A stretch of DNA of 64,000 bases from an uncultured Gammaproteobacteria bacterium. Lineage in GTDB: Bacteria; Patescibacteriota; Patescibacteriia; UBA9934; CAZDDW01. Numbering within the stretch: position 1 is the stretch's first letter; every line of letters begins with the position of its first letter. Of the stretch, positions 2,904-52,612 are shown piece after piece. The notes beneath the pieces are model-generated. The model was given only the letters and a program-made list of their open reading frames with translations, was not told the DNA's origin and did no database searches. Location: NCBI GenBank assembly GCA_965231015.1, contig OZ246408.1:147755-211754 (forward strand). The letters are read 5' to 3'. The translations under genes were made by a program, and so were the position numbers.

Positions 2904-3761
2904 ATGTTGGATCGTCAGAATTGCTTATTAATAGTTCCCGTGAATGACGAGGAAGCCTTTTTGATTGCCGAGATTGGAGAGAAGATTGGGATGCAAGTGT
3001 ATCGGTCGAGTCAAGAACATGGCGCGAAGTTAGAAGATGAAACAGGGATTATGGATGTTCTTGAATGTAGGGGCGAACGGCCGTTCGCCCATGTGATCAT
3101 TGTAGAAATGCCGGGGGTTGAGATCGAGAAAAGGATAAAGGATAAAGGACGATTTTTGCATATCATTGACCATCACCAGTACAACGATTTAGACCGGGCT
3201 CATGATAAAGACGGGAATGCTCTGCCAAGTTCACTGCACCAGTTCCTCGAGCTTGCAGAGATATCGGACTCTGAACTCGAGCAACTCGGTTACGATCCGC
3301 GACTGGTTCACGGAATCGGATATTGGGATGCTGGATATTTTTGGGGGTTGTTGGACGCTGGGTACTCGCGCGAGGAGATTGACCGGGTGGAGGAATATAA
3401 GAATGAACTCGGGGCGAAGATTCCTGGGCGGTTGCCGAGTAAGGAGGCTCGTGATGTGGCCGAGAAGGCTTGGAAGGCCAGGGAAGCTTGGAAGGACTTT
3501 CAGATCGTAGTGTCGGATGATCCGGATACATACATTCGTTCGTTGGTTTCTCGGTTGAGCGCTCGGGAGTACTGGAAACCCATGCCAATGATCATTGTTG
3601 AACGAGCCGGAAAGAGGATTTATGTTCAGGAATCACCTCGAACTCGAGATTTGTTTGAGCATTTTGGAGGGTTCACCTTTGGCTCGGACCGGAATTGGGG
3701 GTATGATAATGAGGAGGAGGTAAGAATAACGTTGGGGAGAGTAAAAGAATTTTTAAAATGA
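2904..3761 (+). CDS. hypothetical protein (contains a DHH tripeptide; no confident family)
   Basis: 285-aa ORF with host-like GC. It contains the 24-bp palindrome gtaggggcgaacggccgttcgccc at 3063-3086, encoding ECRGERPFAH. Confidence 0.5.
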   Translation: MLDRQNCLLIVPVNDEEAFLIAEIGEKIGMQVYRSSQEHGAKLEDETGIMDVLECRGERPFAHVIIVEMPGVEIEKRIKDKGRFLHIIDHHQYNDLDRAHDKDGNALPSSLHQFLELAEISDSELEQLGYDPRLVHGIGYWDAGYFWGLLDAGYSREEIDRVEEYKNELGAKIPGRLPSKEARDVAEKAWKAREAWKDFQIVVSDDPDTYIRSLVSRLSAREYWKPMPMIIVERAGKRIYVQESPRTRDLFEHFGGFTFGSDRNWGYDNEEEVRITLGRVKEFLK

Positions 3762-5048: not shown

Positions 5049-6062
5049 ATGGCTTCACTTCGAGAAATTTCACCAAAGGAAGAAAAAGAAATCATGGAAT
5101 TTACAAAAAAATACGGCCTGGATGGAGCCCGGACTTTTCTTTCTTGTGAATACGGAGATGAATTCAGAGACACTGTTTTAAAGATTGATGAACGCATGGA
5201 CCGGGAAACCGCAGAATTGGTCTTTGCTCGGTATGGAGAGGTGGTGCAAGCGGCGCAAAATGTGGTTTCTGAAATAGAGGATTATCTTGGCTCGTCTGCC
5301 AAGGAGCAACTTGATCCGACCAAGTTGGAACAGAAGCTACTAGAAAAAGCCAAGGATTTTTTGGTTGATGTATCGGCTCAAGATTCTAAAAGGTTAGACG
5401 ATAAACTGAAAAGTTTTACTGCTGACGTGCAGCTTTTTGGAAATATTTTCAGAAGCTTGTTCAAAGGAAAGGAAAACCCGGATCTATCGATGGTTAAAAA
5501 TGTCGAGGTGGTCAGCCGGGAGGCGCAAGAAATCGATCAGAAGGACCAAGCAGCCATGCTCGATATTGCTGACAAGAACTGGCAAGAGATTCCGCGTATG
5601 CATGATTTTGTGGTCGGGTTGTTAAAGAAAAGCGTGGAAAATCCCAAGGAAGGTTCTGAGTTTAAGATTATGAAAAAAGATAATGACGTTCTGGCTTTTA
5701 TGCGGGTGGACAAGGGAGAAGATGGGTCAGCTCATATTGGATCCGTCAATGTGAATCCGAAATACCGCGGTTCAGCCATTGGTGAAGTCATGCTTAATCA
5801 GGCCGTGGAGCAGTTGGCAGCAGATCATGTAGTTAAACTTGAGGCTTATCCTGGTTCTTTGATTACGGTGGTTTACTGTGAAAAGTTTGGTTTTGTGGTG
5901 GATGGGGTGCATGAGATTCCGGTCGAAGGTGATGAACCGTTGTATGGATTCAACATGAAGCGAGATAATAAAGCGAATGAAAAGTATACAGCTCGAGCAG
6001 AACAGTTGGATCCTGAAAAACTGGTCAAGTTATCACAGAAACCAAACGAGGCCAAAAGTTAG
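5049..6062 (+). CDS. hypothetical protein with C-terminal GNAT N-acetyltransferase domain
   Basis: C-terminal YRGSAIGEVMLNQAV, a GNAT motif A-like pattern (R/Q-x-x-G-x-G/A). Confidence 0.55.
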   Translation: MASLREISPKEEKEIMEFTKKYGLDGARTFLSCEYGDEFRDTVLKIDERMDRETAELVFARYGEVVQAAQNVVSEIEDYLGSSAKEQLDPTKLEQKLLEKAKDFLVDVSAQDSKRLDDKLKSFTADVQLFGNIFRSLFKGKENPDLSMVKNVEVVSREAQEIDQKDQAAMLDIADKNWQEIPRMHDFVVGLLKKSVENPKEGSEFKIMKKDNDVLAFMRVDKGEDGSAHIGSVNVNPKYRGSAIGEVMLNQAVEQLAADHVVKLEAYPGSLITVVYCEKFGFVVDGVHEIPVEGDEPLYGFNMKRDNKANEKYTARAEQLDPEKLVKLSQKPNEAKS

Positions 6063-6149: not shown

Positions 6150-6968
6150 CTAGCCGGTTGTTTGCTGATCCGAATGATCCTGATTCTCGAGTTGTGGTTT
6201 TTGAGAAGGCAAGTTAGAACAAGTAAACAATGCTTTAATGGTTGAGCGCATGGTTTTAGCCAAGCTCGGACTTTCAATAATCACGGCAATCATATTTTCG
6301 TGATCCATAAAGGCAACATTGTTTCCAAAAACACTAATATCCCCGGTAAAGGGGTATTTTTGTTCATCAATGACTGAAGCCTGACGCAGTTCAGACTGAC
6401 TTCGGCTCATCATTTCGGATACTCGTTTACTTGAGGAGCTCATCACAGCGAAAACCGGAATTTGGGCGGCAACGCGCTGTTTTAAATACGAGCCACGTAA
6501 CCACTTGAGCAGTGTGGTTTCTTGAGCTGGCGGGCCGATTAAGCTGTAAATCGGCTGGCCGGTTTTAAGAATGGTTTGGTACACCTCTTTCATGCCGCTG
6601 ACCCCTTCAAAGACTCGAAAAGCCGGTTTTTTGGTAATTAAGTTGAAATGGCTCTTTAGGGAAGGAAGAGTAGAATCGAGCTGGGAATATAAATTTTGCA
6701 CAGATTCAAGCCGGGCTTTAGCTAAACCACGCAAACGCTCCGGATCAACTGCTCGAAAGACAGTCTTTTTGCCAGTTTCTTCAATAACCAGCCCTTTTTC
6801 TTTTAAAGACGTTAAAACATTATAGGTATTGCCGCGGCCTAAATCAGTGAGTTTTACGAGTTCTGCTGCTGGTTTTGGTCCATATTCAAGCAAAACCTCG
6901 TATATTTGAACTTCTGAGCTGTTTAGACCAAGCTCTAAAAGGATAGGGAAATGGATTTCATGAGGCAT
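6150..6968 (-). CDS. TrmB-family transcriptional regulator
   Basis: N-terminal winged HTH ELGLNSSEVQIYEVLLEYGPKPAAELVKLTDLGRGNTYNVLTSLKEKGLV, typical of TrmB (PF01978). Confidence 0.7.
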   Translation of the reverse strand: MPHEIHFPILLELGLNSSEVQIYEVLLEYGPKPAAELVKLTDLGRGNTYNVLTSLKEKGLVIEETGKKTVFRAVDPERLRGLAKARLESVQNLYSQLDSTLPSLKSHFNLITKKPAFRVFEGVSGMKEVYQTILKTGQPIYSLIGPPAQETTLLKWLRGSYLKQRVAAQIPVFAVMSSSSKRVSEMMSRSQSELRQASVIDEQKYPFTGDISVFGNNVAFMDHENMIAVIIESPSLAKTMRSTIKALFTCSNLPSQKPQLENQDHSDQQTTG

Positions 6969-6981
6969 ATGGAGGGAGAAG

Positions 6982-7005
6982 GTAAAAGGTAAAGGGTAAA
7001 AGGGG
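6982..7005. repeat. purine-rich tract ggtaaaaggtaaagggtaaaagg; complementary to the pyrimidine-rich tract at 7376-7401 across the Avd-like gene
   Basis: Direct reading of the sequence. A related pair occurs at 9173-9188 and 9207-9234. Confidence 0.7.
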
Positions 7006-7086
7006 CTAAGTTTGCTGGGATTTTCTTAGGGCGGCAAGGGAAATCCAGAGTTGTTCGGTTAAAGCTCGAGTTTCGTTCCAGGAAGT

Positions 7087-7362
7087 TTAAGTGATGTATC
7101 CCTGATTAAGGGCGATTTTTAAGCAGGCGTCGGTTTCTGTTAGTGAGCCAAGAGCAATATTGAGAAAGCGTACGAATTCGGGTTTGGTGTTTCTGGAGCT
7201 CTCTTCAGCTAAATTAAGGTAAATTGAGATTGAAGCCCGGCGAATTTGGCTCGTTAGACCGAATTTTTCCTCGTCCGGAAAGCCTTTACTTAGGGAATAC
7301 ACTTGATTGACATAGTCTAAAATGACCTGGTTAACCCTTAGTTGTTCATATCGAAATTCCAT
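7087..7362 (-). CDS. four-helix-bundle protein of the Avd / 23S-rRNA-intervening-sequence protein family
   Basis: 91 aa. Sequence EFRYEQLRVNQVILDYV...FGLTSQIRRASISIYLNLAEE...FVRFLNIALGSLTETDACLKIALNQGY matches the four-helix-bundle family (TIGR02436/PF05635). No rRNA is present in the window. Confidence 0.7.
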   Translation of the reverse strand: MEFRYEQLRVNQVILDYVNQVYSLSKGFPDEEKFGLTSQIRRASISIYLNLAEESSRNTKPEFVRFLNIALGSLTETDACLKIALNQGYIT

Positions 7363-7375
7363 ATTTTGATTTCTT

Positions 7376-7401
7376 TTACCTCTTTCCTTTTTCCCTTTAC
7401 C
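7376..7401. repeat. pyrimidine-rich tract ttacctctttcctttttccctttacc; partner of 6982-7005
   Basis: In the minus-strand mRNA it becomes a purine-rich 5'UTR that can pair with the pyrimidine-rich 3'UTR, enclosing the ORF in a long stem. Confidence 0.6.
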
Positions 7402-7499
7402 ATCATAATATCATGAAAACGTCACTTAGTCAATGACAGGAGCTGTGGATAAGTCTGGGCTAAAATAAGCCAATTTTGAGGAATAGTGCCACTGACCCC

Positions 7500-7528
7500 T
7501 TGACAAGTTTTGTGTTTTGTGCTATACT
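7500..7528 (+). promoter_or_regulatory. sigma70-type promoter TTGACA-N17-TGcTATACT
   Basis: ccccTTGACAagttttgtgttttgtgcTATACTgg with an extended -10. It is divergent from the Avd-like gene. Confidence 0.7.
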
Positions 7529-7534
7529 GGTGTT

Positions 7535-7725
7535 AACAAGATGAGAAAAGGAAACGAAGAGCCTGGACTCATCAAGTACCTTCAAGAACAATATAGAGCG
7601 AGAGAGCCCGAGCCTGGGGTTATAAGGCATAAGTGAATGGATACATTTATAGATTGATAGATGTATACATTGACTAGACGGATTTAATTATCTCTTGCCG
7701 AGTTAGTTAGATCCGTCTTTTTTAT
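7535..7725 (+). ncRNA. small RNA module copy 1 (promoter-to-terminator, ~190 nt), unclassified
   Basis: It ends in a rho-independent terminator: gacggatttaattatctcttgccgagttagttagatccgtc followed by tttttt. It shares the motifs agagagccc(g/t)..ggg and tgtatacattga with copy 2. No conserved ORF. Confidence 0.55.
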
Positions 7726-8468
7726 AAGACAACAGTTCATTACTAGCATTTACGAATATCCGCAGTGATGACCGGCCCGGTCGGGCACGACAACCGACAG
7801 CGAGGCCATACGGAGGAGCGAGAGAGATCACCACGAATATGCGTAAGTGCATCTTACAAACCCAACTTCATGGGTTCTAACGAGTGCGCTACGCCTGGGA
7901 TCCCCAATCGGGTCGAGCCCAAGCGGAGCAGTCCTTAGAACCAGAGAGGATCAAGCGAGAGACAGAAAAACCTCTATTCGCGGGAAGTACCTTACAATTG
8001 AATACCAAATCGAAGAAGCAGGATGTAGATAAACGAACGAGAGAGATCTCTTGTCTAGGTTCTGCTTCCAGAGATCATGGATTCTAAAGTTATCCAAAAG
8101 GAAACTGTGGAGCATGACTCAATACATAACAGTGAAGTCGGGTCAGGGATTAATTACCAATCGTGATCTTATTATATAGATCGGCCTAGCGATCCGACTT
8201 CAATACTTTTTATGAATACAATTCTATTATCAACTTACATTCCTTTCATGATGGTCGTGGGAACGGTCAGTGTGGTTGGAGCGTGAGTCTTCCATAGCTC
8301 GCAAGGGAGAGAGCTTGCGAGTCTTGGAAGCCTCTGAATCAGATCCGTTATGACGGATCTGATTCAGGGAGAACGCTGCGAGGAAATGATTCTTCGCAGT
8401 GGATTAAAACGGTGCCCGTATGGGCGTTGGTGGCGTAATGCTACAACGGCCTTGAGGGGCTGCCGCAA

Positions 8469-8492
8469 AGCGTAGGGGCGAACGGCTGTTCG
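8469..8492. repeat. near-perfect 24-bp palindrome gtaggggcgaacggctgttcgccc (second copy of the 3063-3086 element)
   Basis: It differs by one base from the copy inside ORF 2904..3761. It sits about 10 bp upstream of the SD of the first GC-rich ORF. Confidence 0.8.
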
Positions 8493-8503
8493 CCCTGGAG
8501 GAG

Positions 8504-9040
8504 ATGACGATGACGACGACCACGACGAAGACAACGAAGACGACGAAGACGACGACGACGGCGCTGCCGCCGATTTCTCGACCGGCGGAGCGGCTGGAGG
8601 CCCTGCGGGGTCGTCTGATCTCGACACCCCGTGGTCCGTCCACGGGGATCGACCTCGGCCATGGCCGTCAGGTCCTGACGGAGGTCGTGTCCGTCCGACA
8701 AACGGACGGAGAGCTGGTCACCGGCCGTGATGCCCGTCACGGCCGGACCGTGCCGCTCGCGCGGCACATCGAATTCCTCCGTCGCAAGATCGCGGCGGAG
8801 AAGAAGCAGGCGGCAGCAGGCCGCCGCGGCCAGCAGGTCACTCGCCGCCGGCCGGGCAAGACCGCCCGTCGGCGGGAAGCGGCCGCCGCGGCCCGTCGCG
8901 AGGCAGAGGCCAAGGCAGAGGCCAAGGCCGCCGCGGCCCGTCGCGAGGCCGCGGAGCAGGCGGCCCGCGAGGCGGGCTGGAACTCGGCCGCGGAGCAGGC
9001 CGAGTGGGAGGTCCTCCTCACAGAAGAGCAGGCCGCCTAG
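8504..9040 (+). CDS. hypothetical protein, GC-rich island ORF 1
   Basis: Strong SD ggaggag before ATG. N-terminal Thr/Lys triplet repeat (MTMTTTTTKTTKTTKTT), Arg/Ala-rich coiled-coil-like C-terminus. GC ~68%. Confidence 0.5.
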   Translation: MTMTTTTTKTTKTTKTTTTALPPISRPAERLEALRGRLISTPRGPSTGIDLGHGRQVLTEVVSVRQTDGELVTGRDARHGRTVPLARHIEFLRRKIAAEKKQAAAGRRGQQVTRRRPGKTARRREAAAAARREAEAKAEAKAAAARREAAEQAAREAGWNSAAEQAEWEVLLTEEQAA

Positions 9041-9113
9041 CCCGCCCCCCTGATCCGTGCTTACGGGGCGATTGAAGCACGGCGGCCAAGGGACCGTTTC
9101 CCTCGCACTCGAA

Positions 9114-9150
9114 CCCCGAGCGGACGCGACGCACATCGCTTCGCTCGGGG
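9114..9150. repeat. conserved nested-hairpin motif copy 1 (ccccgagcgg-acgcgacgcacatcgc-...cgctcgggg)
   Basis: One of three near-identical ~37-nt elements, each lying 70-305 bp past the stop of a GC-rich ORF. Confidence 0.75.
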
Positions 9151-9172
9151 CCTCGATTGAGAATAGGAAATA

Positions 9173-9234
9173 GGTAAAAGGTAAAAGGATCTGAAAATCT
9201 GATTTTCTTACCTCTAACCCTTTACCCTTTCCCC
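9173..9234. repeat. hairpin built from ggtaaaaggtaaaagg / cctctaaccctttaccctttcccc tracts (same family as the tracts flanking the Avd-like gene)
   Basis: Direct reading. The central gaaaatc-t-gattttc is itself a palindrome. Confidence 0.6.
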
Positions 9235-9352
9235 TTCTGAATTGAGGCAACCGGGAAGTTTCTCTCGGTGACTCAAAGTGAAAACAAAACTCGGATTTAG
9301 CCACCCGGGTTTGAGAATGATCAGGTTGGCGACCTGAAAACGAGGAGAAAAG

Positions 9353-10372
9353 ATGTTCCAAATGACTATCAACGTTGCGGTCATGTTCTCGAAGTTCTTC
9401 AGCCCCGCCGACCGCGAGGCGGTGCTGGAGGCCATCCCGGCCGACGCCAAGAAGGTGCTGTTCGTGGACACGGGCGCCACGCCCGTGCTGGCGGACACGA
9501 TCCGCGTGCTCTTCGAGCGCGGGATCGAGGTGGTCGTCCGAGACCACCACCGTGGCGAGGGCAGGACGCCCGAGGCCGCGGAGGCGATCGAGAAGATCCT
9601 GGGCGACAACGCCCGGATCGTCTCGCGCGATGAGGCACCGGCGTGTGCCTCTCTCGTCGAGATCGCCGAGTTCGCCGAGGTCGGGACGGTCATCGTGGCC
9701 GATCCGGACCCGGACGGCCTGACCGCGGCCATGAAGGCGGCCGGCGTGACCTACGACGGCCTGGACCGCGACGCCGCGGTGCTCGACGGGCCGCGGTCCG
9801 AGCAGACCGCTGACCGGCTCTCGGATCTGGCGGTCCTGTTGACGAAGGGGATGGCGACCTTGCCCCCCTTCAACCCCAAGCGGCCGGAGGGGGGCGAGAA
9901 GGCGAAGAGCGAACACTTCGGAGAGTTTGTTGCCGCCACCCAGGGCGACGAGCAGGCCGTCGAGGCCTTGACCAAGAAGGTCGAGGTCTACGAGGTGCAG
10001 GTCTCGGAGGCCGAGCGCCTGGCCACCCGCGCCGAACAGATCCTGCCCGGCGTCTGGCTGGTCGACTGCCGCACCGGCGGCAGGTTCGACCTGGCCACGC
10101 TGGCCAAGGAGATCGAGTCCCGCCCCGGCTGCATCTGCACGGTGCAGATCAAGGGTATGGGTCCGATCGCAGCGGCCTGCGGGGGGATCCAGTACTCCTT
10201 GGCGGTGGTGAAGAGCCATCAGGCCGAGCTGGATCTCCGGAGCCTGGTCCCGGACGGCGCCGAGTCGAGCCCGGCAGCCGGACTCATCTCGAACACCTCC
10301 TTCCTCCTGCATGTGAGCCAGGAGAGGTGGATCCAGGAGATCGAGCCGGCGCTGCGCGCCCGGCTCGGCTAG
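9353..10372 (+). CDS. hypothetical protein, GC-rich island ORF 2
   Basis: SD aggagaaaag before ATG. 339 aa, GC ~67%. Contains DHH, DPDPD and EHFGEF segments. No confident family. Confidence 0.5.
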   Translation: MFQMTINVAVMFSKFFSPADREAVLEAIPADAKKVLFVDTGATPVLADTIRVLFERGIEVVVRDHHRGEGRTPEAAEAIEKILGDNARIVSRDEAPACASLVEIAEFAEVGTVIVADPDPDGLTAAMKAAGVTYDGLDRDAAVLDGPRSEQTADRLSDLAVLLTKGMATLPPFNPKRPEGGEKAKSEHFGEFVAATQGDEQAVEALTKKVEVYEVQVSEAERLATRAEQILPGVWLVDCRTGGRFDLATLAKEIESRPGCICTVQIKGMGPIAAACGGIQYSLAVVKSHQAELDLRSLVPDGAESSPAAGLISNTSFLLHVSQERWIQEIEPALRARLG

Positions 10373-10673
10373 TCCGGTTCACCTTTTCACGCGCAAGGGG
10401 TCGCGGGGAAAAGGGAAAGAAGAATGCTGCCGGTGCTGTGAAGCCGAAAGGTGGAGCTAGGCAGTAAAACCCCCCCAATCCTACAGATAGAGAGGATCTT
10501 CTATGATTGTAGGAAAACGCCACCGGTTAAGGCGTGATAATACAAATACCGGCTAATGGCCTTCGCCAAGGCTACACCGACGTATCGTGAACTTGTGGCG
10601 ACAAGTTATACGACAGTTGGTCTCTGCCAGGACCGGCCCGCAAGAGCTATATCTTGCATGCACTCGAGACATT

Positions 10674-10710
10674 CCCCGAGCGGACGCGACGCACATCGCA
10701 CCGTTCGGGG
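10674..10710. repeat. conserved nested-hairpin motif copy 2
   Basis: ccccgagcggacgcgacgcacatcgcaccgttcgggg, 302 bp after the ORF 2 stop. Confidence 0.75.
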
Positions 10711-11541
10711 ACTCGACCGAAGTCCGGAAATTTTCCGAACTTCAGTTGAGGAGAGTTAAACCAACACGCAGAGCAAACGGGCTCTGGTTAGGCCTCTTTT
10801 GGTCGCGGTTCTGTGGTGGTTCCGCGCCCCGGAGGTCTAACCGGAACCCCTTTGCCAGGGGTTGTTTATGTTTTGCTTCTAAAGTCCGTGAAATATTTCA
10901 TAGCCTTTGGAAGCGCCGTGAGGGAAATTGTTCCTTCGCGGTGTGGGGCAAGTGCTGATGCCCATTCATTCCAATTCAGCACAACTCTCATCGCCCGAAT
11001 ATCCTCTATAAGTGATAGTGTGCCTGTCATGAAATGGGGAGAATAGGGGTGATGAGATTGGAGAGCCATGAGAAAAATCATGGCCGGATGGTTGCGCAGC
11101 TCGAGCGGCATTCTTGTCGCGGGCTGTCTGCCATACGGACCGGTCCTGTGGGCGACATTGCTCACCTGTTTGGACCCCGCGTGCCGGCACCACGAGCCGG
11201 CAGCGCGGATCGTCACCCGCAAGTAGGTGATGATATCCGTAAGTCGCGATGCCCGGTGCGTTATCCGGGGAGGTCCTTTTCAGGGCCGGTGGCCGACGAG
11301 CCAAAGCGGGGCACCGCATGAAAAGCAGGGGGCGAGTCGGTTGCACACCGACCGCTCCCTTTCCACATCAGCGCGGAGACTCTAGCTCTCTTGCTGGCCG
11401 CCTTGTTTCCTAAGAGGCGTAACAGCCGCCGCTCTGATGTGGCCGCGTGAACATGCGTTCGCGCGGAAAACAGCCCCCGCCTATATCCGGAACGGGTCTG
11501 GATGAAATGGCAAGGGCAAACCGCATGAAAGGAGAAACAAC

Positions 11542-13773
11542 ATGCGGTGTTACACATGGTCCGGGGGCGAGCTCCGAGAGGGGCTCGCTCTGACCCAGGA
11601 CGATCGGCTCGGGCCGGTTGTGTTCCTGGGCGAGGCCGGGCGCGGCCGACGCTACGAAAAGGTAGCGCTCGGTCGGCGCGCTCCGGCCGAGGTGATCAAC
11701 GGGCGCGTGCTCGACGCGCACCCGGCCAAGATCACCCTGCCACCCCGGGACGGGAAGCCCGAGAAGAGCTTCTACGTCCTGGAGAAGCCGCGCCAGCACG
11801 GCGGTGACGCCGTGCTCGTGCGGGTGTACACGTACACGTCGTACATCCGCGGCGGGCGGGGATGTTGGCGGAGGATCGCCGGTGAGCCCATGACCCTGAT
11901 CTCCGGCTACGGCGCCTTCGGCGCTGCCGGCCGGGTCGGGAGCTGGGACGACGGGCTGATCGTCCTCCGCCACGGCGACGTGTTGCGCGTGTCCCCTTCG
12001 CGGGGACAGCACAGCTACGCGCTGTGGCTCGAGGCCGGCCGGCCGGTCACGGCCACCTGGCAGGACTACGAGAACCTCCAGGCGGTCGAGAAGGCCCAGC
12101 AGGTGCTCGAGCAGGCGGCGGAGACGCCCGAGGATCTCGATGTGATCTTCGGCCAGATGCGGACGTTCACGTTCGCGGGTGGCCAGATCACGGCGGGGCT
12201 AAAGGTGACGAAGGGCGCCACCGGCCCGGTCATCGCGTTCGGCGAGTCCGGACGCGGGCGTTCGCTCGTCGAGGTGCCCCTGGTCGGCCTCGACGTCACC
12301 AAGCAGAGCGACAACTACGGTCGCGAGAGCGAAGTGGTCGAGACGGCCAGCGTGGTCAAGCTCGACGAGAAGGCGGCGCCGGCGCGGTACAGCTGGGAGC
12401 AGCCCAAGGTCAATACGATCTACGGGCTCACCCAGACGGGCAAGTCGGAGGACGCCTTCCTCGTCCGCGTGTCGACCGCCGGCCCCTACACCAAGGGGAC
12501 CACCGGCACCGTCGACCCGTGGAAGGGCTCGCCCGTGGTCATCACCTCGGGCAGCGGTGCCCACGGTGACGCCGGCCGCGTCGGCGGGTGGGACGACGTC
12601 CTGCTCGTCGTGCGGGAGGGTGACGTGCTCTTCGTCCGCTCCGAAGGGGGCTACAAGAGCGCGGGTCCGTGGGCGCTGTACGTCGAGGGCGGCGAGCTCA
12701 AGGTCGAGTTCTGGCAGGAGTGGAAGCTCCGCGACGCCAAGAACGACCCCGAGTTCTACGTCGCCCAGCGCACCGCGCCGATGGGCCACACCCCCTCGGA
12801 GTGGGTCGGCCAGGTCGTGACGGTCTGCTACCTCTCGCAGGGGCAGTCCGGCTGTGGCCCGACCAAGACCTACCTCGAGGACCGCGCCACGGGCGAGCTC
12901 GTCCGGATCGGGCAGGAGTCGGTCGTCCTCAACCTCGGTTGGGACGGCAAGGACTACCACGAGTCCACCATCGGTGGTTCGTGGGTCAAGCTCGAGAAGG
13001 ACAAGCAGGTCCGGAAGCTCGACGGTGAGGAGGCGGAGAAGCGCAAGCAGATCCGCACCGAGGCCGAGGAGTTGAAGGACAAGGCCATCCTGGCCACGAA
13101 GCAGAGCCACTTCGAGCTGGCCGAGGCCACCTTGCGCCGCCAGGTGCAGGAGATCGCGCAGGAGTCAGGGTTCGACACCATGTCCACCGAGGGCTGGTAC
13201 GACTCCCTCACCTCCTGGGTCGAGAAGGCCAAGGCCGTGGTCGAGAAATGGCAGGCGACCGAGGCCGAGCTCAAGACGCTCGAGGAGCGCAAGAGCTCGG
13301 GTGAGGTGCTCGTGGACTTCGGCGGCCACTTCCGCGTGATGGGTGCCACCGGCAACGCCCAGTACTGGGTGATCATGCCGGACGGCTCCGAGCGCGACCC
13401 CGACGAGGTGGAGTACCGAAAGCGGTATACCTCGGAGGGGAGCAAAAAGTGGCGGCTGGTCGGTCCCGGGGAGCTGGCGATTTCGTGGTTCAAGGCCTAC
13501 ACGGCCGCGGACCACGAGTTTGTCGTCGACAAGCTCCCCGAGGGTGGTTGCACCGCGGAACAGCTCGTCACGGTTGAGCGCCTCGAGCGCGAGATCGACG
13601 AGCGATTCCGTGGCAGTGTCGGTTGCTCCGGGCAGTCTAGCCCGGACATCGGCCGTGGCTGGGATCTACAGCCAGCCCCCACCCCCACCGCCCCCGTGGT
13701 CGAGTCTACCGGGACGTCCGACTCTTCGGAGCCGGATCTCTCGAGTCTGCTCGGCAAGTGGGGCCGCCGCTAA
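11542..13773 (+). CDS. hypothetical protein with internal duplicated domain, GC-rich island ORF 3
   Basis: SD aaaggag before ATG. 743 aa. Two homologous segments (GYGAFGAAGRVGSWDDGLIVLRHGDVLRV and GSGAHGDAGRVGGWDDVLLVVREGDVLFV). Coiled-coil-like central region. Confidence 0.55.
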   Translation: MRCYTWSGGELREGLALTQDDRLGPVVFLGEAGRGRRYEKVALGRRAPAEVINGRVLDAHPAKITLPPRDGKPEKSFYVLEKPRQHGGDAVLVRVYTYTSYIRGGRGCWRRIAGEPMTLISGYGAFGAAGRVGSWDDGLIVLRHGDVLRVSPSRGQHSYALWLEAGRPVTATWQDYENLQAVEKAQQVLEQAAETPEDLDVIFGQMRTFTFAGGQITAGLKVTKGATGPVIAFGESGRGRSLVEVPLVGLDVTKQSDNYGRESEVVETASVVKLDEKAAPARYSWEQPKVNTIYGLTQTGKSEDAFLVRVSTAGPYTKGTTGTVDPWKGSPVVITSGSGAHGDAGRVGGWDDVLLVVREGDVLFVRSEGGYKSAGPWALYVEGGELKVEFWQEWKLRDAKNDPEFYVAQRTAPMGHTPSEWVGQVVTVCYLSQGQSGCGPTKTYLEDRATGELVRIGQESVVLNLGWDGKDYHESTIGGSWVKLEKDKQVRKLDGEEAEKRKQIRTEAEELKDKAILATKQSHFELAEATLRRQVQEIAQESGFDTMSTEGWYDSLTSWVEKAKAVVEKWQATEAELKTLEERKSSGEVLVDFGGHFRVMGATGNAQYWVIMPDGSERDPDEVEYRKRYTSEGSKKWRLVGPGELAISWFKAYTAADHEFVVDKLPEGGCTAEQLVTVERLEREIDERFRGSVGCSGQSSPDIGRGWDLQPAPTPTAPVVESTGTSDSSEPDLSSLLGKWGRR

Positions 13774-13943
13774 CCGAATCCCGTTCGGGCCCATGACGGC
13801 TCGGACGGGAACTATTCTTTCGGCCGAAAACTAAGAAGAGTAATGCCGTAAACTATGCTCTTCTGCGGACTATTCGTCCGTCCGCGCAAGCGGTAACAGA
13901 ATCGGCACTCCCCGGGCCGCCGCAAGGCCCGGTGCACATACAT

Positions 13944-13981
13944 CCCCGAGCGGTTGCGATTGCACATCGCGCCGCTCGGGG
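13944..13981. repeat. conserved nested-hairpin motif copy 3
   Basis: ccccgagcggttgcgattgcacatcgcgccgctcgggg, 170 bp after the ORF 3 stop. The loop shows coupled ac-to-tt and ac-to-at substitutions relative to copies 1 and 2. Confidence 0.75.
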
Positions 13982-14031
13982 CCTTAACTAAGATTGGGAA
14001 GTGATTCACAATCTTTAATAGGAGGTGAGAC

Positions 14032-17530: not shown

Positions 17531-19372
17531 ATGTGCGGAATAGTCGGATATATCGGAAAAAAGGAGGTTTTGCCAATTTTGGTGGATGGCTTAAAGCGTC
17601 TTGAATATCGTGGATACGACTCAGCTGGAGTAGCTGTAATTTCTGGTGAAACTCTTCAGGTTGTGAAGGCTCCAGGAAAAATTGTGGAACTCGAAGGAAA
17701 ACTCGAAGGATCAAGTATAAAGGACAAAGGACAAAGGATCGGAATCGCTCATACTCGTTGGGCCACTCATGGTCCGCCGACCGAAGATAATGCTCATCCG
17801 CATACGGACTGTTCGGGTAAACTGGCACTCGTACACAATGGAATTGTAGAAAACTATCAAGAACTAAAAACAGAACTTGAAGCGGATGGTCATAAATTTA
17901 AATCCGAAACCGACACCGAGGTGTTGGTTCATTTGGTTGAAAAACATCTTAAAGATTGTAAGGATTTATCAGAAGCTGTCCGGGAAACTGTAAAAGAAGT
18001 TCGAGGCACGTACGGTCTGGCTGCGGTTTCAGCTGGCGCGCCAGAAGAAATTGTGGTTGCCCGAATGGGCTCACCGATAGTGATCGGACTTGGCAAGGAC
18101 GATTTTTTTGTTGCCTCAGATGCCTCGGCCATCATCAACCACACTCGAAACGTAATTTTTTTGGATGATGGAGAGATGTGTGTTTTGCGTCCTGACGGAT
18201 ACGAAATTAAAACTTTAAGTAACCTGCCAGTGGCTAAGGATCCGGAAGAACTAGAGTGGTCATCCGAAGACGTTCAAAAAAATGGCCAGCCACATTTTAT
18301 GAAAAAGGAGATGTTGGAGCAGCCGGAAGTAATCTTGAATTCAACTCGTGGTCGACTGAAACCGAAAGACGGTAAGGCTATCCTTGGTGGATTGTGCGAT
18401 ATTGCCGAACGTTTGCGTGAGCTTGATCGCATCATCATTGTTGGCTGTGGGAGCGCGTATTATGCAGGATTGGTTGGCGAATATATGCTTGAAGAATATG
18501 CAGGAATTCCGGTTGAAGTCGAGCACGCTTCAGAGTTTCGTTACCGCAAAGCCATTATCGATCGTCACACCGCAGTGCTGGCAATTTCTCAATCAGGTGA
18601 AACAGCGGACACGCTCGCGGCCATTCGGGAGGCCAAAGAAAAAGGTGCACTCACTCTCGGAATCGTGAACACAGTTGGTTCAACCATTGCCCGCGATACA
18701 GACGCCGGAGTTTACAACCATGCCGGTCCAGAAATCGGGGTGGCTTCTACTAAAGCGTTCTTGTCTCAAGTCACGGTACTCGCTTTGATGGGTTTGTTCC
18801 TTGGTCGACAACGGGATCTTAGCATGGTCATGGGTAAACGCATTGCGGACGAAATCAATTTGCTACCGGATAAGTTACAATCAATTTTGGACCAGTTCGA
18901 TTTGATAGTTCAGCTCGCAGAGAAATACAAAGATGCCCGCGATTTCATGTACTTGGGTCGTAAATATTTGAACCCAATCGCTCTTGAGGGGGCTCTCAAA
19001 CTCAAAGAAATTAGTTATATCCATGCTGAGGGTTATGCGGCCGGGGAGATGAAGCACGGACCAATTGCTTTAATCGATCCAGAGTTTCCAGTATTCGTGT
19101 TGGCTCCGAAAGATTCCGTGTATGAAAAGACCATCTCAAACTTGGAAGAGATCAAAGCTCGTGGCGGCAAAATCATTGCTCTTACTACCGAAGGCAATGA
19201 AGAGATTCGAAAGTTGGTTGACGATGTAATCTTTATTCCCAAAACTCTGGAAATGCTAACGCCAATCCTGGCTGTAGTACCGCTTCAGATTTTTGCTTAC
19301 GGTGTGGCAACGGCCAAGGGTTATGATCCAGACAAGCCGCGCAACCTGGCTAAGTCAGTTACCGTCGAATAA
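17531..19372 (+). CDS. glmS: glutamine--fructose-6-phosphate aminotransferase
   Basis: Starts MCGIVGY (N-terminal Cys nucleophile). Two SIS domains. 613 aa. Confidence 0.95.
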   Translation: MCGIVGYIGKKEVLPILVDGLKRLEYRGYDSAGVAVISGETLQVVKAPGKIVELEGKLEGSSIKDKGQRIGIAHTRWATHGPPTEDNAHPHTDCSGKLALVHNGIVENYQELKTELEADGHKFKSETDTEVLVHLVEKHLKDCKDLSEAVRETVKEVRGTYGLAAVSAGAPEEIVVARMGSPIVIGLGKDDFFVASDASAIINHTRNVIFLDDGEMCVLRPDGYEIKTLSNLPVAKDPEELEWSSEDVQKNGQPHFMKKEMLEQPEVILNSTRGRLKPKDGKAILGGLCDIAERLRELDRIIIVGCGSAYYAGLVGEYMLEEYAGIPVEVEHASEFRYRKAIIDRHTAVLAISQSGETADTLAAIREAKEKGALTLGIVNTVGSTIARDTDAGVYNHAGPEIGVASTKAFLSQVTVLALMGLFLGRQRDLSMVMGKRIADEINLLPDKLQSILDQFDLIVQLAEKYKDARDFMYLGRKYLNPIALEGALKLKEISYIHAEGYAAGEMKHGPIALIDPEFPVFVLAPKDSVYEKTISNLEEIKARGGKIIALTTEGNEEIRKLVDDVIFIPKTLEMLTPILAVVPLQIFAYGVATAKGYDPDKPRNLAKSVTVE

Positions 19373-45364: not shown

Positions 45365-45413
45365 GCCTAAAATTAGGTCAAATCTTGACAAAGACACAAA
45401 ATGGTGCTATATT
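45365..45413 (+). promoter_or_regulatory. promoter-bearing repeat A (gcctaaaattaggtcaaatcTTGACAaag-N-TGcTATATT), left boundary of the DGR cassette
   Basis: A near-identical ~40-bp copy lies at 48405-48445, immediately after the RT stop. Confidence 0.75.
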
Positions 45414-45558: not shown

Positions 45559-46470
45559 ATGATGATGACGACGGAAACGTTGATCACGTCACGGGATCCC
45601 AAGGGCAGACAGTGCTTCAGTGTGCTCGAGGCCGTCTATGACAAGGCGGAGCTCAACCCCGAGGAAGCACAGCACATCAACGAACAGGGCTATGAACTCA
45701 AGCGCGAGTTTCAGAAACTGATCGCCCGTTTGCGTGTCCGTCAGGATTACGCCAACGAGCAGGTGATCTCGAGCTACACCTACCCGAACGAGTACGCGGG
45801 CCCGCAGCCTATCGCCGAGCAGGTGGACATTCTGGCCGAGTTGTTCGGCCTGTCGCTCGGAGCAACGGTTGAGTACATTGAGAAGGTGCTACCCTCGCTC
45901 GAGCTTCCCAAGGGAGCCGAGGGGTGGTTCGCCATCCCGAGTGTCGGCGCTCTCGCTGCCCGTCACTTCCCCAAGGTCACCGATCCGGCCGAGCAGTACT
46001 GCCGCGCGGTCGAGCTGGTGCTCAAGAAGATCAGTCACTCGCGGAAGTTCTACAACTACCGCCAGGGGCAGATCAATCCGAACCAGCTGCGCCAGTATGC
46101 TAGCAGTATGGCCATGATGGAGCAGACCGTCAAGAACCAGCCAGGCGACATCATGATCATCCCGGCCCAGTTCGGTCTGCGTCACCGAGGATGCAGTGTC
46201 CGTCGAGCCCGAGCTATTTTCACCAAGAACGAATTCGGCCTCGGAGCGCTCGCTGTTGGTTCAATGCTCCTCACTCATCCCAAGCGCCTTGTCCGTTGGG
46301 AACAGCTCCACGTGGACTGCACGGGTGATGAATTTGCTCCGGTTGCTGGTGGCCAGTTCGTGCACGCGCCGTTCTTCGACTGGCTCGGCGGCGGAGTCGG
46401 GTTCTACTCCGGCCGCCTCGACAACGCGCGCGTGTACTATGGTTCGGCCTCCGGGTTTCTCCCGCAGTAG
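45559..46470 (+). CDS. DGR target (variable) protein; cytoplasmic-type N-terminus, C-terminal variable region
   Basis: SD aaggag. 303 aa. GC-rich relative to its surroundings. The last ~43 codons form the VR, which matches the TR at all positions except those where the TR carries an adenine. Confidence 0.8.
   Translation: MMMTTETLITSRDPKGRQCFSVLEAVYDKAELNPEEAQHINEQGYELKREFQKLIARLRVRQDYANEQVISSYTYPNEYAGPQPIAEQVDILAELFGLSLGATVEYIEKVLPSLELPKGAEGWFAIPSVGALAARHFPKVTDPAEQYCRAVELVLKKISHSRKFYNYRQGQINPNQLRQYASSMAMMEQTVKNQPGDIMIIPAQFGLRHRGCSVRRARAIFTKNEFGLGALAVGSMLLTHPKRLVRWEQLHVDCTGDEFAPVAGGQFVHAPFFDWLGGGVGFYSGRLDNARVYYGSASGFLPQ
46338..46468 (+). repeat. DGR variable repeat (VR)
   Basis: 131 bp aligned to the TR at 46849-46979 without gaps. 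There are 23 mismatches, and every one sits at a TR adenine. Confidence 0.85.
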
Positions 46471-46848: not shown

Positions 46849-46979
46849 TCCGGATGCTGGTGGCCAGTTCGTGAACGCACCGAACTTCAACTGGAACGAC
46901 GGCAAAGTCAAGTTCAACACCGACAACCTCGACAACGCGAACGTGAACTATGGTTCGACCTCCGGGTTTCTCCCGAAGT
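46849..46979 (+). repeat. DGR template repeat (TR)
   Basis: Adenine-rich. The AAC codons in TR correspond to the variable codons in VR. The track ORF 46805..47041 is the TR read in the VR frame, not a gene. Confidence 0.85.
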
Positions 46980-47027: not shown

Positions 47028-47378
47028 TTATTCAGATTTAAGTGAGCGTATCCATCCTCCAAGCATGCGTCCGATTTCATCTACCTGTTGTTGCAAGGGA
47101 GTATATTTGTTGTTGTCGATAATTTTGATGTCCTTGGCCAGGCGAATTAAAAATCTAAGTAGGTTAAGTCGAACACTAACTTTTTCTAATGTCGGTAGTT
47201 TATTGTGTTTATACAGCTCGCTGGCTTGCAGAATACCTTCAATATTATCCAGGTTAGCATTTTCAATTCTTTGCCATAGAGTATGTTTATCCTGTTTTGG
47301 TATACTGGGGCGGAGAATATAAATGTTTCGATACAATTCGTAAGATTTTTTGAAGATGGGAATGTCAAACTCGTCCAT
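47028..47378 (-). CDS. avd: DGR accessory variability determinant (Avd)
   Basis: About 116 aa from the internal Met. C-terminal VDEIGRMLGGWIRSL matches the Avd hallmark (compare Bordetella phage Avd ..EVGRILGSWIARV). Basic four-helix-bundle pattern. Inverted relative to TR and RT. Confidence 0.7.
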   Translation of the reverse strand: MDEFDIPIFKKSYELYRNIYILRPSIPKQDKHTLWQRIENANLDNIEGILQASELYKHNKLPTLEKVSVRLNLLRFLIRLAKDIKIIDNNKYTPLQQQVDEIGRMLGGWIRSLKSE

Positions 47379-47387
47379 ATAATAAGT

Positions 47388-48405
47388 GTGAAGATTGATA
47401 AGAATATTTTTGATTCGATTATTGATCCGGAGTCTCTTTTTCAGGCTTGGCAGAAGTTTCGGAATGGTAAAAGCAAACGTAAGGACGTAACTCAATTTGA
47501 GTGGAATTTGGAGAGTAATATTTTCAAGCTACATCGTGATTTAGTCAATGGAATTTATCGACACGGGTCATACACTGATTTTTACATCACTGATCCAAAA
47601 TTGCGCCATATTCACAAGGCTACGGTGCGGGACAGGATTGTACATCACGCCGTGTATCAAGTTGTAAATACAATCTTTGAGCGATCATTTATTTTCGACA
47701 GTTACTCCTGTCGGATTGGCAAGGGTACACATGCGGCAGTGAATCGACTCGAGAAGTTCGTTCGTAAGGTGAGCAAAAATTACACTGGTCCATGTTGGGC
47801 GCTTCAGTTTGATGTGAAAAAATTTTTTGATTCCGTTGATCATGACATTTTACTTAGTATTCTCAAACAAAAAATCTCCTGTCCAAAGACAAACCGTCTT
47901 TTGGCGGAGATCGTGGGCAGTTACTCGAGTTCAAATTCCGTTGGGGGGGGGGACGCTACTTGGAACCATTCGCGCGAAAGGTCTCCCGATTGGGAATTTA
48001 ACCTCGCAGTTGTTCGCGAACGTGTATATGGATGCATTTGATCATTTTATTAAAGAGGGGTTAAGAGCGCAGTGTTATCTACGCTATACTGATGATGCTT
48101 TGATTATTCACGAAGATCCGAAATATTTGAGTCTGCTCGTGCCATTTATTCAGCACTGGCTTTGGCAGAACAGGTGTCTTGTTTTGCATCCTTATAAAAC
48201 ATCTATCCGAAAATATTCGCAAGGGATTGATTTTCTTGGCTATGTTAATCTGCCACATTATCGAGTGCTTAGGACAAAAACCAAGAAGCGCATGTTTAAC
48301 CGCATTGATGAAACAAATCTGTCTTCATATTTGGGGGTTTTGTCTCATGCTGATACTCACAAAATGCAAGATAACTTGTTAAATATAGTTTGGTTTGAGC
48401 TTTAG
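47388..48405 (+). CDS. DGR reverse transcriptase, interrupted by a +1 frameshift in a G10 tract (47944-47953)
   Basis: RT motifs: TVRDRIVHHAVYQVV, FDVKKFFDSVDH, KGLPIGNLTSQLFANVYMD (the DGR-specific I/LGxxxSQ signature), YLRYTDD. The two halves are the track ORFs 47283..48041 and 47827..48405. The start is uncertain (ATG 47283 or GTG 47388). Confidence 0.8.
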
Positions 48406-48453
48406 CCTAAAATTAGGTCAAATCTTGACAAAATGAGCGAATGGTGCTAAGGT
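48405..48453 (+). promoter_or_regulatory. promoter-bearing repeat B (gcctaaaattaggtcaaatcTTGACAaaa...), right boundary of the DGR cassette
   Basis: Identical to repeat A over ~30 bp, then diverges. The -10 is degenerate (TAAGGT). Begins at the RT stop codon. Confidence 0.7.
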
Positions 48454-52537: not shown

Positions 52538-52612
52538 GGGCCGATAGCTCAACGGTAGAGCCCCGAGCTTATACCTCGGTAGTTGATGGTTCGAGTCCAT
52601 CTCGGCCCACCA
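52538..52612 (+). tRNA. tRNA with anticodon UAU (Ile, AUA-reading)
   Basis: GGGCCGATAGCTCAACGGTAGAGCCCCGAGCTTATACCTCGGTAGTTGATGGTTCGAGTCCATCTCGGCCCACCA. Anticodon loop CTTATAC. Confidence 0.7.

Follow-up and report, generated by a model that had tools for sequence, protein, structure and literature searches.

A probable heptamer-hairpin cassette with an interrupted S23p-type four-helix-bundle gene in the leader of a trmB-like gene, outside rRNA

The stretch analyzed here (the window) comprises 64,000 nucleotides of a Patescibacteriota contig (OZ246408.1, positions 147,755 to 211,754), and its element of interest is a small minus-strand gene for a protein of the S23p type, a family known from open reading frames (ORFs) within intervening sequences (IVSs) of 23S rRNA. 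We consider it likely that positions 7401..6971 are an inserted heptamer-hairpin cassette, in which a PF05635/TIGR02436 gene is placed between inverted arrays of three to five heptamers in an IVS-like layout that lies outside rRNA. It is probably a copy, outside rRNA and in decay, of the S23p "ORF-in-stem" cassette found in 23S rRNA IVSs, mobile and accompanied by ORF-less derivatives similar to miniature inverted-repeat transposable elements (MITEs). Among elements of its kind the local one is ordinary and decaying; outside rRNA, the kind as such has hardly been described. An earlier reading of the same DNA (the original prediction) had described the gene as an orphan of the Avd/23S-IVS family, enclosed by complementary untranslated regions (UTRs) in a small mobile or duplicated ORF-in-stem module, and possibly acting in trans with a diversity-generating retroelement (DGR) at 46-48 kb of the window. 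The module is supported as a discrete inserted unit, a sister species and an outgroup having nothing at the orthologous site, and the link with the DGR is not supported.

Occupied and empty sites could be compared with a sister species, represented by contigs from other sequencing runs (L084-L086), whose TrmB protein (P0116) is 87% identical to that of the window. In the sister species the same promoter is followed by about 16 A-rich nucleotides and then by the trmB ATG, with no cassette. Aligning the two (alignment A2) shows flanks of about 85-90% identity and, in the window, 431 additional nucleotides, 7401..~6971, composed of arm, ORF and arm, with indel boundaries (7401 and ~6971) which coincide with the outer ends of the arms. 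No PF05635 gene was found upstream of trmB in the syntenic outgroup L087 (trmB, acetyltransferase, IleRS) nor in the more distant L089 and L091, and the trmB orthologs, P0116 and P0123 included, have no cassette. Since the site is empty in the sister species and in the outgroups, insertion in the lineage of the window is the parsimonious reading, and the aligned sequences are thus most simply explained by a lineage-specific insertion in the trmB 5' leader, in sense orientation behind the host promoter. The result is a presence/absence polymorphism bounded by inverted repeats, of the kind expected from MITEs and small elements with terminal inverted repeats (TIRs). The trmB leader of L087 (3940-4003, GTAAAAAGAAGGTTATCAAAAC...ATG) bears a weak, A-rich resemblance to window positions 7363-7385 before the S23p ATG (GGTAAAAGAAATCAAAATATG). 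Part of the 5' arm or of the spacer might be derived from the original host leader.

The cassette, its promoter and the trmB-like gene are all on the minus strand. The host promoter is of the sigma-70 type (TTGACT-17-TATTAT, 7405..7433; 10/12 match, with a TG before the -10 box), is conserved in L084/L085 and reads straight into the 5' arm of the cassette. This arm (7373..7401) is purine-rich on the sense strand and consists of four tandem heptamers, GGTAAAG GGAAAAA GGAAAGA GGTAAAA G, the whole tract from 7401 to 7373 being GGTAAAGGGAAAAAGGAAAGAGGTAAAAG. It is followed by a 10-nt spacer (AAATCAAAAT, 7363..7372; the family median gap is 9 nt), by the remaining ORF of 91 codons (7090..7362), which encodes helices 1-3 of the S23p-type protein, by a premature TAA at codon 92 (7087..7089), by relic coding sequence of helix 4 (7009..7086) and by the ancestral stop TAG (7006..7008). 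The latter abuts the 3' arm (6971..7005), in accordance with a family median of 1 nt from stop to 3' arm. The 3' tract from 7005 to 6971 begins CCCCTTTTACCCTTTACCTTTTACC... and is built of inverted heptamers, pyrimidine-rich on the sense strand (CCCCTTTTAC CCTTTAC CTTTTAC CTTCTCCCTCC). Downstream is the trmB-like regulator gene (6150..6968; PF01978, E = 5.8e-17), now the second cistron, with the cassette in its 5' leader.

The best ungapped inverted repeat between the arms is 16 nt at 94%, or 35 nt at 74%. A duplex of both 60-nt flanks reaches -37.4 kcal/mol, compared with -18.7 +/- 3.6 kcal/mol for shuffled flanks (z = -5.1; 0/300 as good), and the arms pair with each other in the minimum free energy (MFE) structure of the whole 461-nt module, i.e. 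a long stem of terminal inverted repeats encloses the ORF as it does in IVSs. The z-score for the fold of the whole cassette (-0.42) was set aside because the interior of the ORF dominates its energy, and arm-versus-arm duplexes were used instead. The proposed complementarity of the two UTRs is therefore real as far as the arms are concerned, while most of what had been called the 3'UTR is relic coding sequence; the placement of the ORF in the loop of a long stem also holds, and neither the tandem heptamers in the arms nor the interruption of the ORF had been recognized. As the original prediction had stated, there is no rRNA nearby: a search with Rfam at gathering score found only RNase P and tRNAs in the 64-kb window. 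The flanks of the cassette are a promoter and trmB and not helix 25 or 45 of 23S rRNA. Tandem GGTAAA(A)GG is present in the window only at 6981-7003 and 9173-9188, and CCTTTACC only at 7394 and 9219. Nine heptamer arrays were found in the window (one to four in shuffled sequences), but an inverted partner exists only for the four arms of two elements; partnerless arrays start at 3126, 17710, 24253, 54629 and 58004. Solitary arrays at 3126-3153 (GGATAAA), 17710-17741 (AAGGACA) and 58004-58036 (CGACGTG) lie inside long ORFs, with no inverted partner within 600 nt.

The gene has the coordinates and sequence given in the original prediction (7087..7362, minus strand, 91 amino acids) and is a clear member of its family, matching PF05635 (23S_rRNA_IVP) with E = 7.3e-28 and 97.3 bits (cut-off 33.8) and TIGR02436 ("four helix bundle protein") with 88.7 bits (cut-off 24). 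Both matches end early, at position 86 of 106 in PF05635 and 82 of 109 in TIGR02436. The premature in-frame TAA (7089..7087) falls on the first residue of helix 4, and the frame continues past it for 26 further codons (TSWNETRALTEQLWISLAALRKSQQT) up to the TAG (7008..7006) which adjoins the 3' arm. Translation through the TAA raises the PF05635 score from 97.3 to 103.1 bits and extends the coverage of the profile from 1-86 to 1-100 of 106, and the alignment to XCC0516 (PDB 2GSC) spans the stop (residues 8-113; E = 1.4e-19). The closest homolog, P0002, is 63% identical, is 117 amino acids long, and has GAA at the site of the window's TAA and ...TEQIWISLCALRKTQ downstream. Nearly all of 114 homologs are 115-125 amino acids long. 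The same TAA was found in two independent assemblies from other runs (L001, L002). An AlphaFold2 model of P0002 (pLDDT 96.1) has helices at 9-25, 30-55, 60-86 and 92-114 and is close to known structures, with a TM-score of 0.95 to 2GSC and 0.82 to BT_0352 (PDB 2RLD), the latter also being matched by the window protein in sequence (E = 5.9e-07). Since helix 4 spans residues 92-114 in this model and the stop is at codon 92, the window product is without all of helix 4, and is not the full bundle of four helices and about 115-125 residues. Judged from its sequence, the window ORF is a truncated PF05635/TIGR02436 member or a pseudogene, so that this copy is decaying, with family homology retained in the relic helix 4 sequence behind the stop. 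XCC0516, deposited as five chains, and BT_0352 are structures of the "S23 ribosomal protein family" and direct sequence relatives of the window protein; unlike them, the window copy stops short of helix 4. The polar residues E32, S38, Q39, R42, S46 and E53 are invariant across the family. PADLOC gave no match for the 91-residue protein.

A second element in the window has the same arms without the gene. An empty version of the stem had been proposed at 9173-9234; it is indeed present and is longer, covering 9150..9248 on the minus strand, with GGTAAAA/GGTAAAG arms at 9161-9190 and 9210-9238. Its hairpin reaches -42.7 kcal/mol (z = -6.6; 0/200 shuffles), and both ends of the full cassette can be aligned with it, the 5' end at 28/35 identities and the 3' end together with the final codons of the ancestral ORF. 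None of 500 shuffles attained either local alignment score. A global alignment with cheap gaps had produced meaningless scattered blocks and was replaced by these two local alignments. The alignments to the two cassette ends meet at a common TAAGAAAATC-like microhomology, which is the expected remnant of an ORF deletion between short direct repeats. On these alignments 9150..9248 is a derivative of this cassette type that has lost the ORF by internal deletion. Its GC content is 42% and host-like, while its flanks have 69-72% GC.

ORF-less heptamer hairpins are also present in the sister contig L084, one of the GGTAAAG type (384-465) and one of the GTAGAAN type (930-1005), and the GTAGAAN unit also flanks the P0002 gene in L003. 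The two sister hairpins occupy sites at which the window has unrelated hairpins (7636-7676, 8190-8290). A scan of metagenome contigs for GGTAAAR x3 returned 120 loci, among them 24 ORF-less hairpins and five with a PF05635 ORF, and in at least three of these five the gene lies between inverted arms, as it does in the window. Loci of the scan with a putative partner 80-700 nt away have unrelated intervening ORFs and were discarded as probable chance partners. In a Nitrospinota metagenome-assembled genome (L041; 700-1140, 3750-4090, 4890-4990, 5594-6035) hairpins of the GCGGAAT type lie in frame in cheW-like and cheA ORFs, whose frames are unbroken. The GCGGAAT unit of L041 also flanks a second, divergent four-helix-bundle gene (5651-6004).

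The layout is not particular to this genome. "Four helix bundle proteins" of PF05635/TIGR02436 are widely distributed in bacteria, at least 492 relatives being confirmed from one set of search patterns, and we examined 82 such genes from 80 unrelated genomes among the matches listed. The 60 nt preceding the start codon were paired with a 60-nt stretch beginning at the stop codon and compared with dinucleotide shuffles, 177 neighboring ORFs serving as control. The median z of the flank duplexes is -2.4, and z < -2 was obtained for 46/82 genes (56%) but for only 6.8% of the neighboring ORFs. Cognate flanks pair at -28.1 kcal/mol and non-cognate flanks at -16.6 kcal/mol (p = 6e-16). Both flanks have a sharp 7-nt periodicity, with autocorrelations of 0.42/0.46, 0.38/0.41 and 0.34/0.39 at lags 7, 14 and 21 over a baseline of about 0.27, and the arrays are mostly of 3-5 heptamer units. 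The units vary by gene (CGTAAAT, GTGACAG, GGGTAGA, AGTGGTT and others), each 3' arm being the reverse complement of its own 5' arm. The median distance is 9 nt from the end of the 5' arm to the ATG and 1 nt from the stop to the 3' arm, and the purine-rich arm is the 5' one in 39/47 genes (p = 5.5e-6). No rRNA or any other Rfam family was found in the 20 strongest loci. The cassettes are co-oriented with the upstream neighbor in 59/69 cases and with the downstream neighbor in 61/69 (median gaps 65 and 53 nt), and they lie inside operons, as in the window and in L003, between ruvX and the next gene. Family loci have 4.5 heptamer arrays per 10 kb, and arrays outside the arms share their unit (up to one mismatch) with arms of their own locus in 29% of cases, compared with 3.6% for arms of other loci (p = 6e-8). 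A simple model of cognate recognition between protein and repeat was not supported, since heptamer type does not follow protein phylogeny. Taken from these sequence comparisons, an ORF between inverted heptamers appears to be the rule for the PF05635/TIGR02436 family in non-rRNA contexts.

How such cassettes would behave can be outlined by analogy with the rRNA versions. In Coxiella burnetii the S23p ORF lies in the loop of a 28-bp TIR stem of the 23S IVS, with tandem GACAGAT heptamers before the ATG; RNase III cleaves within the stem, a putative Shine-Dalgarno sequence is removed, and the ORF is under reductive evolution (PMC4990558). On transcription of the cassettes described here the arms would pair into a double-stranded RNA stem of about 25-35 bp, which RNase III may cut as it does in the rRNA versions, and through such cleavage the cassette would come free of the host transcript, so that insertion in transcribed regions would become tolerable. 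Spread would take place at the DNA level through a route dependent on the hairpin or on the inverted repeat, and the ORF-less hairpins would be non-autonomous derivatives.

The origin and mobility of rRNA IVSs have been debated since the early 1990s, and earlier authors regarded them as mobile elements or remnants of these, possibly selfish (PMC4990558). Insertions in the rRNA of bacteria of the candidate phyla radiation have also been reported with PF05635 ORFs. The window element is similar to the 23S IVSs of Coxiella burnetii (with S23p) and Leptospira in having an S23p ORF in a stem loop, in the decay of that ORF and in the tandem heptamers just upstream of the ATG, GACAGAT in Coxiella and GGTAAAG in the window. 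It differs in lying in an mRNA leader, rRNA being absent from the window and from the 20 best family loci, and in having a documented ORF-less derivative and an empty orthologous site. We found no prior description of PF05635 genes with heptamer inverted repeats outside rRNA in the open-access full-text literature. Repetitive extragenic palindromes (REPs), their hairpin-forming doublets (REPINs) and the associated RAYT transposases also combine one gene flanked by an inverted short repeat with scattered ORF-less hairpins, a combination found here at 9150..9248, at L084 384-465, in the family loci and in the metagenome scan. However, RAYT is an HUH (IS200-like) transposase while the window ORF matches only PF05635 and no HUH/Y1 domain, and the repeat of the window type is a tandem heptamer array which is variable between cassettes. 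With MITEs and small TIR elements the cassette shares terminal inverted repeats, presence/absence polymorphism and an ORF-less internal-deletion derivative, but no target-site duplication was seen, there is no transposase, and family members do not share the sequence of their termini. In intergenic spacers, tandem heptamers of 2-6 units that end just upstream of start codons are known as the short tandemly repeated repetitive (STRR) sequences of cyanobacteria and the TAACTGA repeats of Beggiatoaceae (PMC4679880); these were described as direct repeats, with neither an inverted partner nor a link to PF05635.

Several points weigh against a mobile cassette. The case for mobility consists of one pair of occupied and empty sites and of comparative patterns, and no movement was observed. 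No target-site duplication could be seen by eye at either element, and with a single empty site the junction can be placed only to within a few bases. A scan of the adjacent ORFs gave no transposase domain, and no transposase or recombinase is associated with the element; its only ORF is the four-helix-bundle gene, for whose protein no catalytic activity is known. The threshold of z < -2 is passed by no more than about half of the family. The GGTAAAR-flanked PF05635 genes of unrelated metagenomes are only 24-33% identical to the window protein, while the 63%-identical P0002 has GTAGAAG arms, so heptamer type does not track protein phylogeny. In one genome heptamer hairpins lie in frame inside cheA and cheW-like ORFs; efficient cleavage of such stems would do damage there, which argues that not every one of them is so cleaved. 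The test for strand-specific RNA selection described next is also of modest power.

One alternative is that the tracts are purely an RNA-level regulatory device, immobile, in which pairing of the 5' and 3' UTRs controls the stability or translation of the small ORF and trmB. Several features would suit such a device: the energy of the stem is strongly favorable, the promoter reads straight into the 5' arm, this arm lies over the ribosome-binding region (median 9 nt before the ATG, purine-rich in 39/47) and the cassettes are in sense orientation within operons. Where selection acts on a single RNA strand, a stem can accept G·U pairs but not A·C pairs. The arm mismatches of 47 strong cassettes are 27 of the G·U type and 24 of the A·C type (p = 0.78), the 51 informative mismatches giving the test only modest power, and the duplex energies of sense and antisense arms do not differ (ddG -0.4, p = 0.37). 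RNA-strand-specific selection on the arms was thus looked for in two ways and found in neither. With no G·U bias the complementarity looks like a DNA-level inverted repeat which decays neutrally, and this would fit turnover of elements better than long-term selection on RNA. The absence of the entire unit from the orthologous site in the sister species and outgroups also argues against an immobile device, as do the ORF-less copies elsewhere, including those in a compositionally foreign island and in coding genes of other genomes, and we regard this alternative as improbable. Chance pairing of low-complexity sequence, which the original prediction had itself named as fatal to its claim, is refuted and has next to no probability left. 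Purine- or pyrimidine-rich and A/T-rich tracts can indeed pair spuriously, but 0/300 shuffles reach the energy of the duplex, the motif occurs at only two elements in 64 kb, and the pattern recurs in the family with other heptamers.

Two further alternatives concern the protein. It is conceivable, though we would not favor it, that the S23p protein itself propagates or maintains the heptamer hairpins, ORF-bearing copies being autonomous and ORF-less ones non-autonomous, by analogy with RAYTs and REPINs. In favor are a gene flanked by an inverted repeat whose ORF-less hairpins also occur close by and within the lineage, the invariant polar residues E32, S38, Q39, R42, S46 and E53, and the relative Avd, an accessory protein that handles nucleic acid (PMC10053308; PDB 8UB7). 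On the other hand, the protein has no catalytic motif and its fold no recombinase precedent, heptamer type does not follow protein phylogeny, and the copy in the window is broken. The other alternative, a second Avd without reverse transcriptase (RT) acting in trans with the DGR at 46-48 kb, is very improbable and largely refuted. To our knowledge Avd is the sole characterized relative of the PF05635/TIGR02436 family. The four-helix-bundle fold and superfamily are common to the window protein and Avd (bAvd, PF22296/NF033474; PDB 4DWL, 8UB7), and the P0002 model has a TM-score of 0.78 to 4DWL, but with about 10% identity in the structural alignment. A weak match to the Avd equivalog NF033474 (E = 0.007) amounts to 16.7 bits where the cut-off is 80, and PF22296 gave no match at E <= 0.01. 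The profile search with both kinds of model therefore placed the gene in the PF05635/TIGR02436 half of the "Avd/23S-IVS" family that had been claimed for it and not in the Avd half.

The DGR itself is complete without the orphan gene, with a variable repeat (VR, 46338-46468) 82% identical to the template repeat (TR, 46849-46979), an RT region (47283-48405) and its own bAvd (47028..47495, minus strand; PF22296, 79.5 bits), which adjoins TR and RT and has no BLASTP similarity to the 91-residue protein. The orphan gene lies 40 kb away with no RT or TR beside it and, unlike the DGR's Avd, fails both Avd models and bears flanking heptamer inverted repeats. Helix 4 is missing from it as well, and on the parsimonious reading its insertion postdates the divergence from the sister species. 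This layout exists in 80 unrelated genomes, so the cassette does not point to this DGR; we conclude that it is without functional link to it. Two overlapping ORFs, 47283-48041 and 47827-48405, each hold part of the RT, a sign of a possible frameshift. Direct repeats of 45 nt (45365-45409 and 48405-48449, 87% identical) bracket the DGR, as if the whole of it were a cassette.

Some other features of the window may be mentioned. In a window of about 43% GC there is a high-GC island (~8440-14000, 60-72% GC) with ORFs at 8504-9040, 9353-10372 and 11542-13773, which gave no PADLOC match and at most one weak sub-threshold Pfam match (DHH, 9353-10372); a Thr/Lys-rich repeat opens the first of them. 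The island is no assembly chimera, since independent assemblies contain it and the sister species also has its first ORF. On the plus strand, a promoter close to consensus (TTGACA-17-TATACT, 7500-7528) is followed by about 900 nt without an ORF (7500-8440). Compared with the sister species over about 1 kb, this stretch has about 75% identity and long invariant blocks; its first ~200 nt are recognizable in distant relatives, and at two positions it has different hairpin inserts in the window and in the sister species. Rfam gave nothing for 7400-8700 even at E <= 1. We take 7500-8440, located between trmB and the high-GC island, as a candidate for a large non-coding RNA. ARAGORN predicts a tRNA-Ile with anticodon TAT at 52538-52612, an uncommon bacterial way of reading AUA.

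From all these results we can return to the inserted heptamer-hairpin cassette and to its family. It is possible, although we put it forward only tentatively, that PF05635/TIGR02436 genes with inverted heptamer arrays are widespread, undescribed small mobile cassettes, the ORF-bearing forms being autonomous and the ORF-less forms MITE-like, some of them in frame in genes; 23S IVSs would then be copies that landed in rRNA, an Avd-like pentamer would handle the hairpin, and the Avd of DGRs would be a domesticated relative. A PF05635 match near a DGR should not automatically be taken as an Avd. The locus supplies a clean pair of occupied and empty sites outside rRNA together with an ORF-less derivative, and the family gains a signature, i.e. 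inverted arrays of 3-5 heptamers which hug the start and stop codons, in sense orientation in operons and with no wobble bias. With these the idea that IVSs are selfish cassettes becomes testable, both genome-wide and at the bench.

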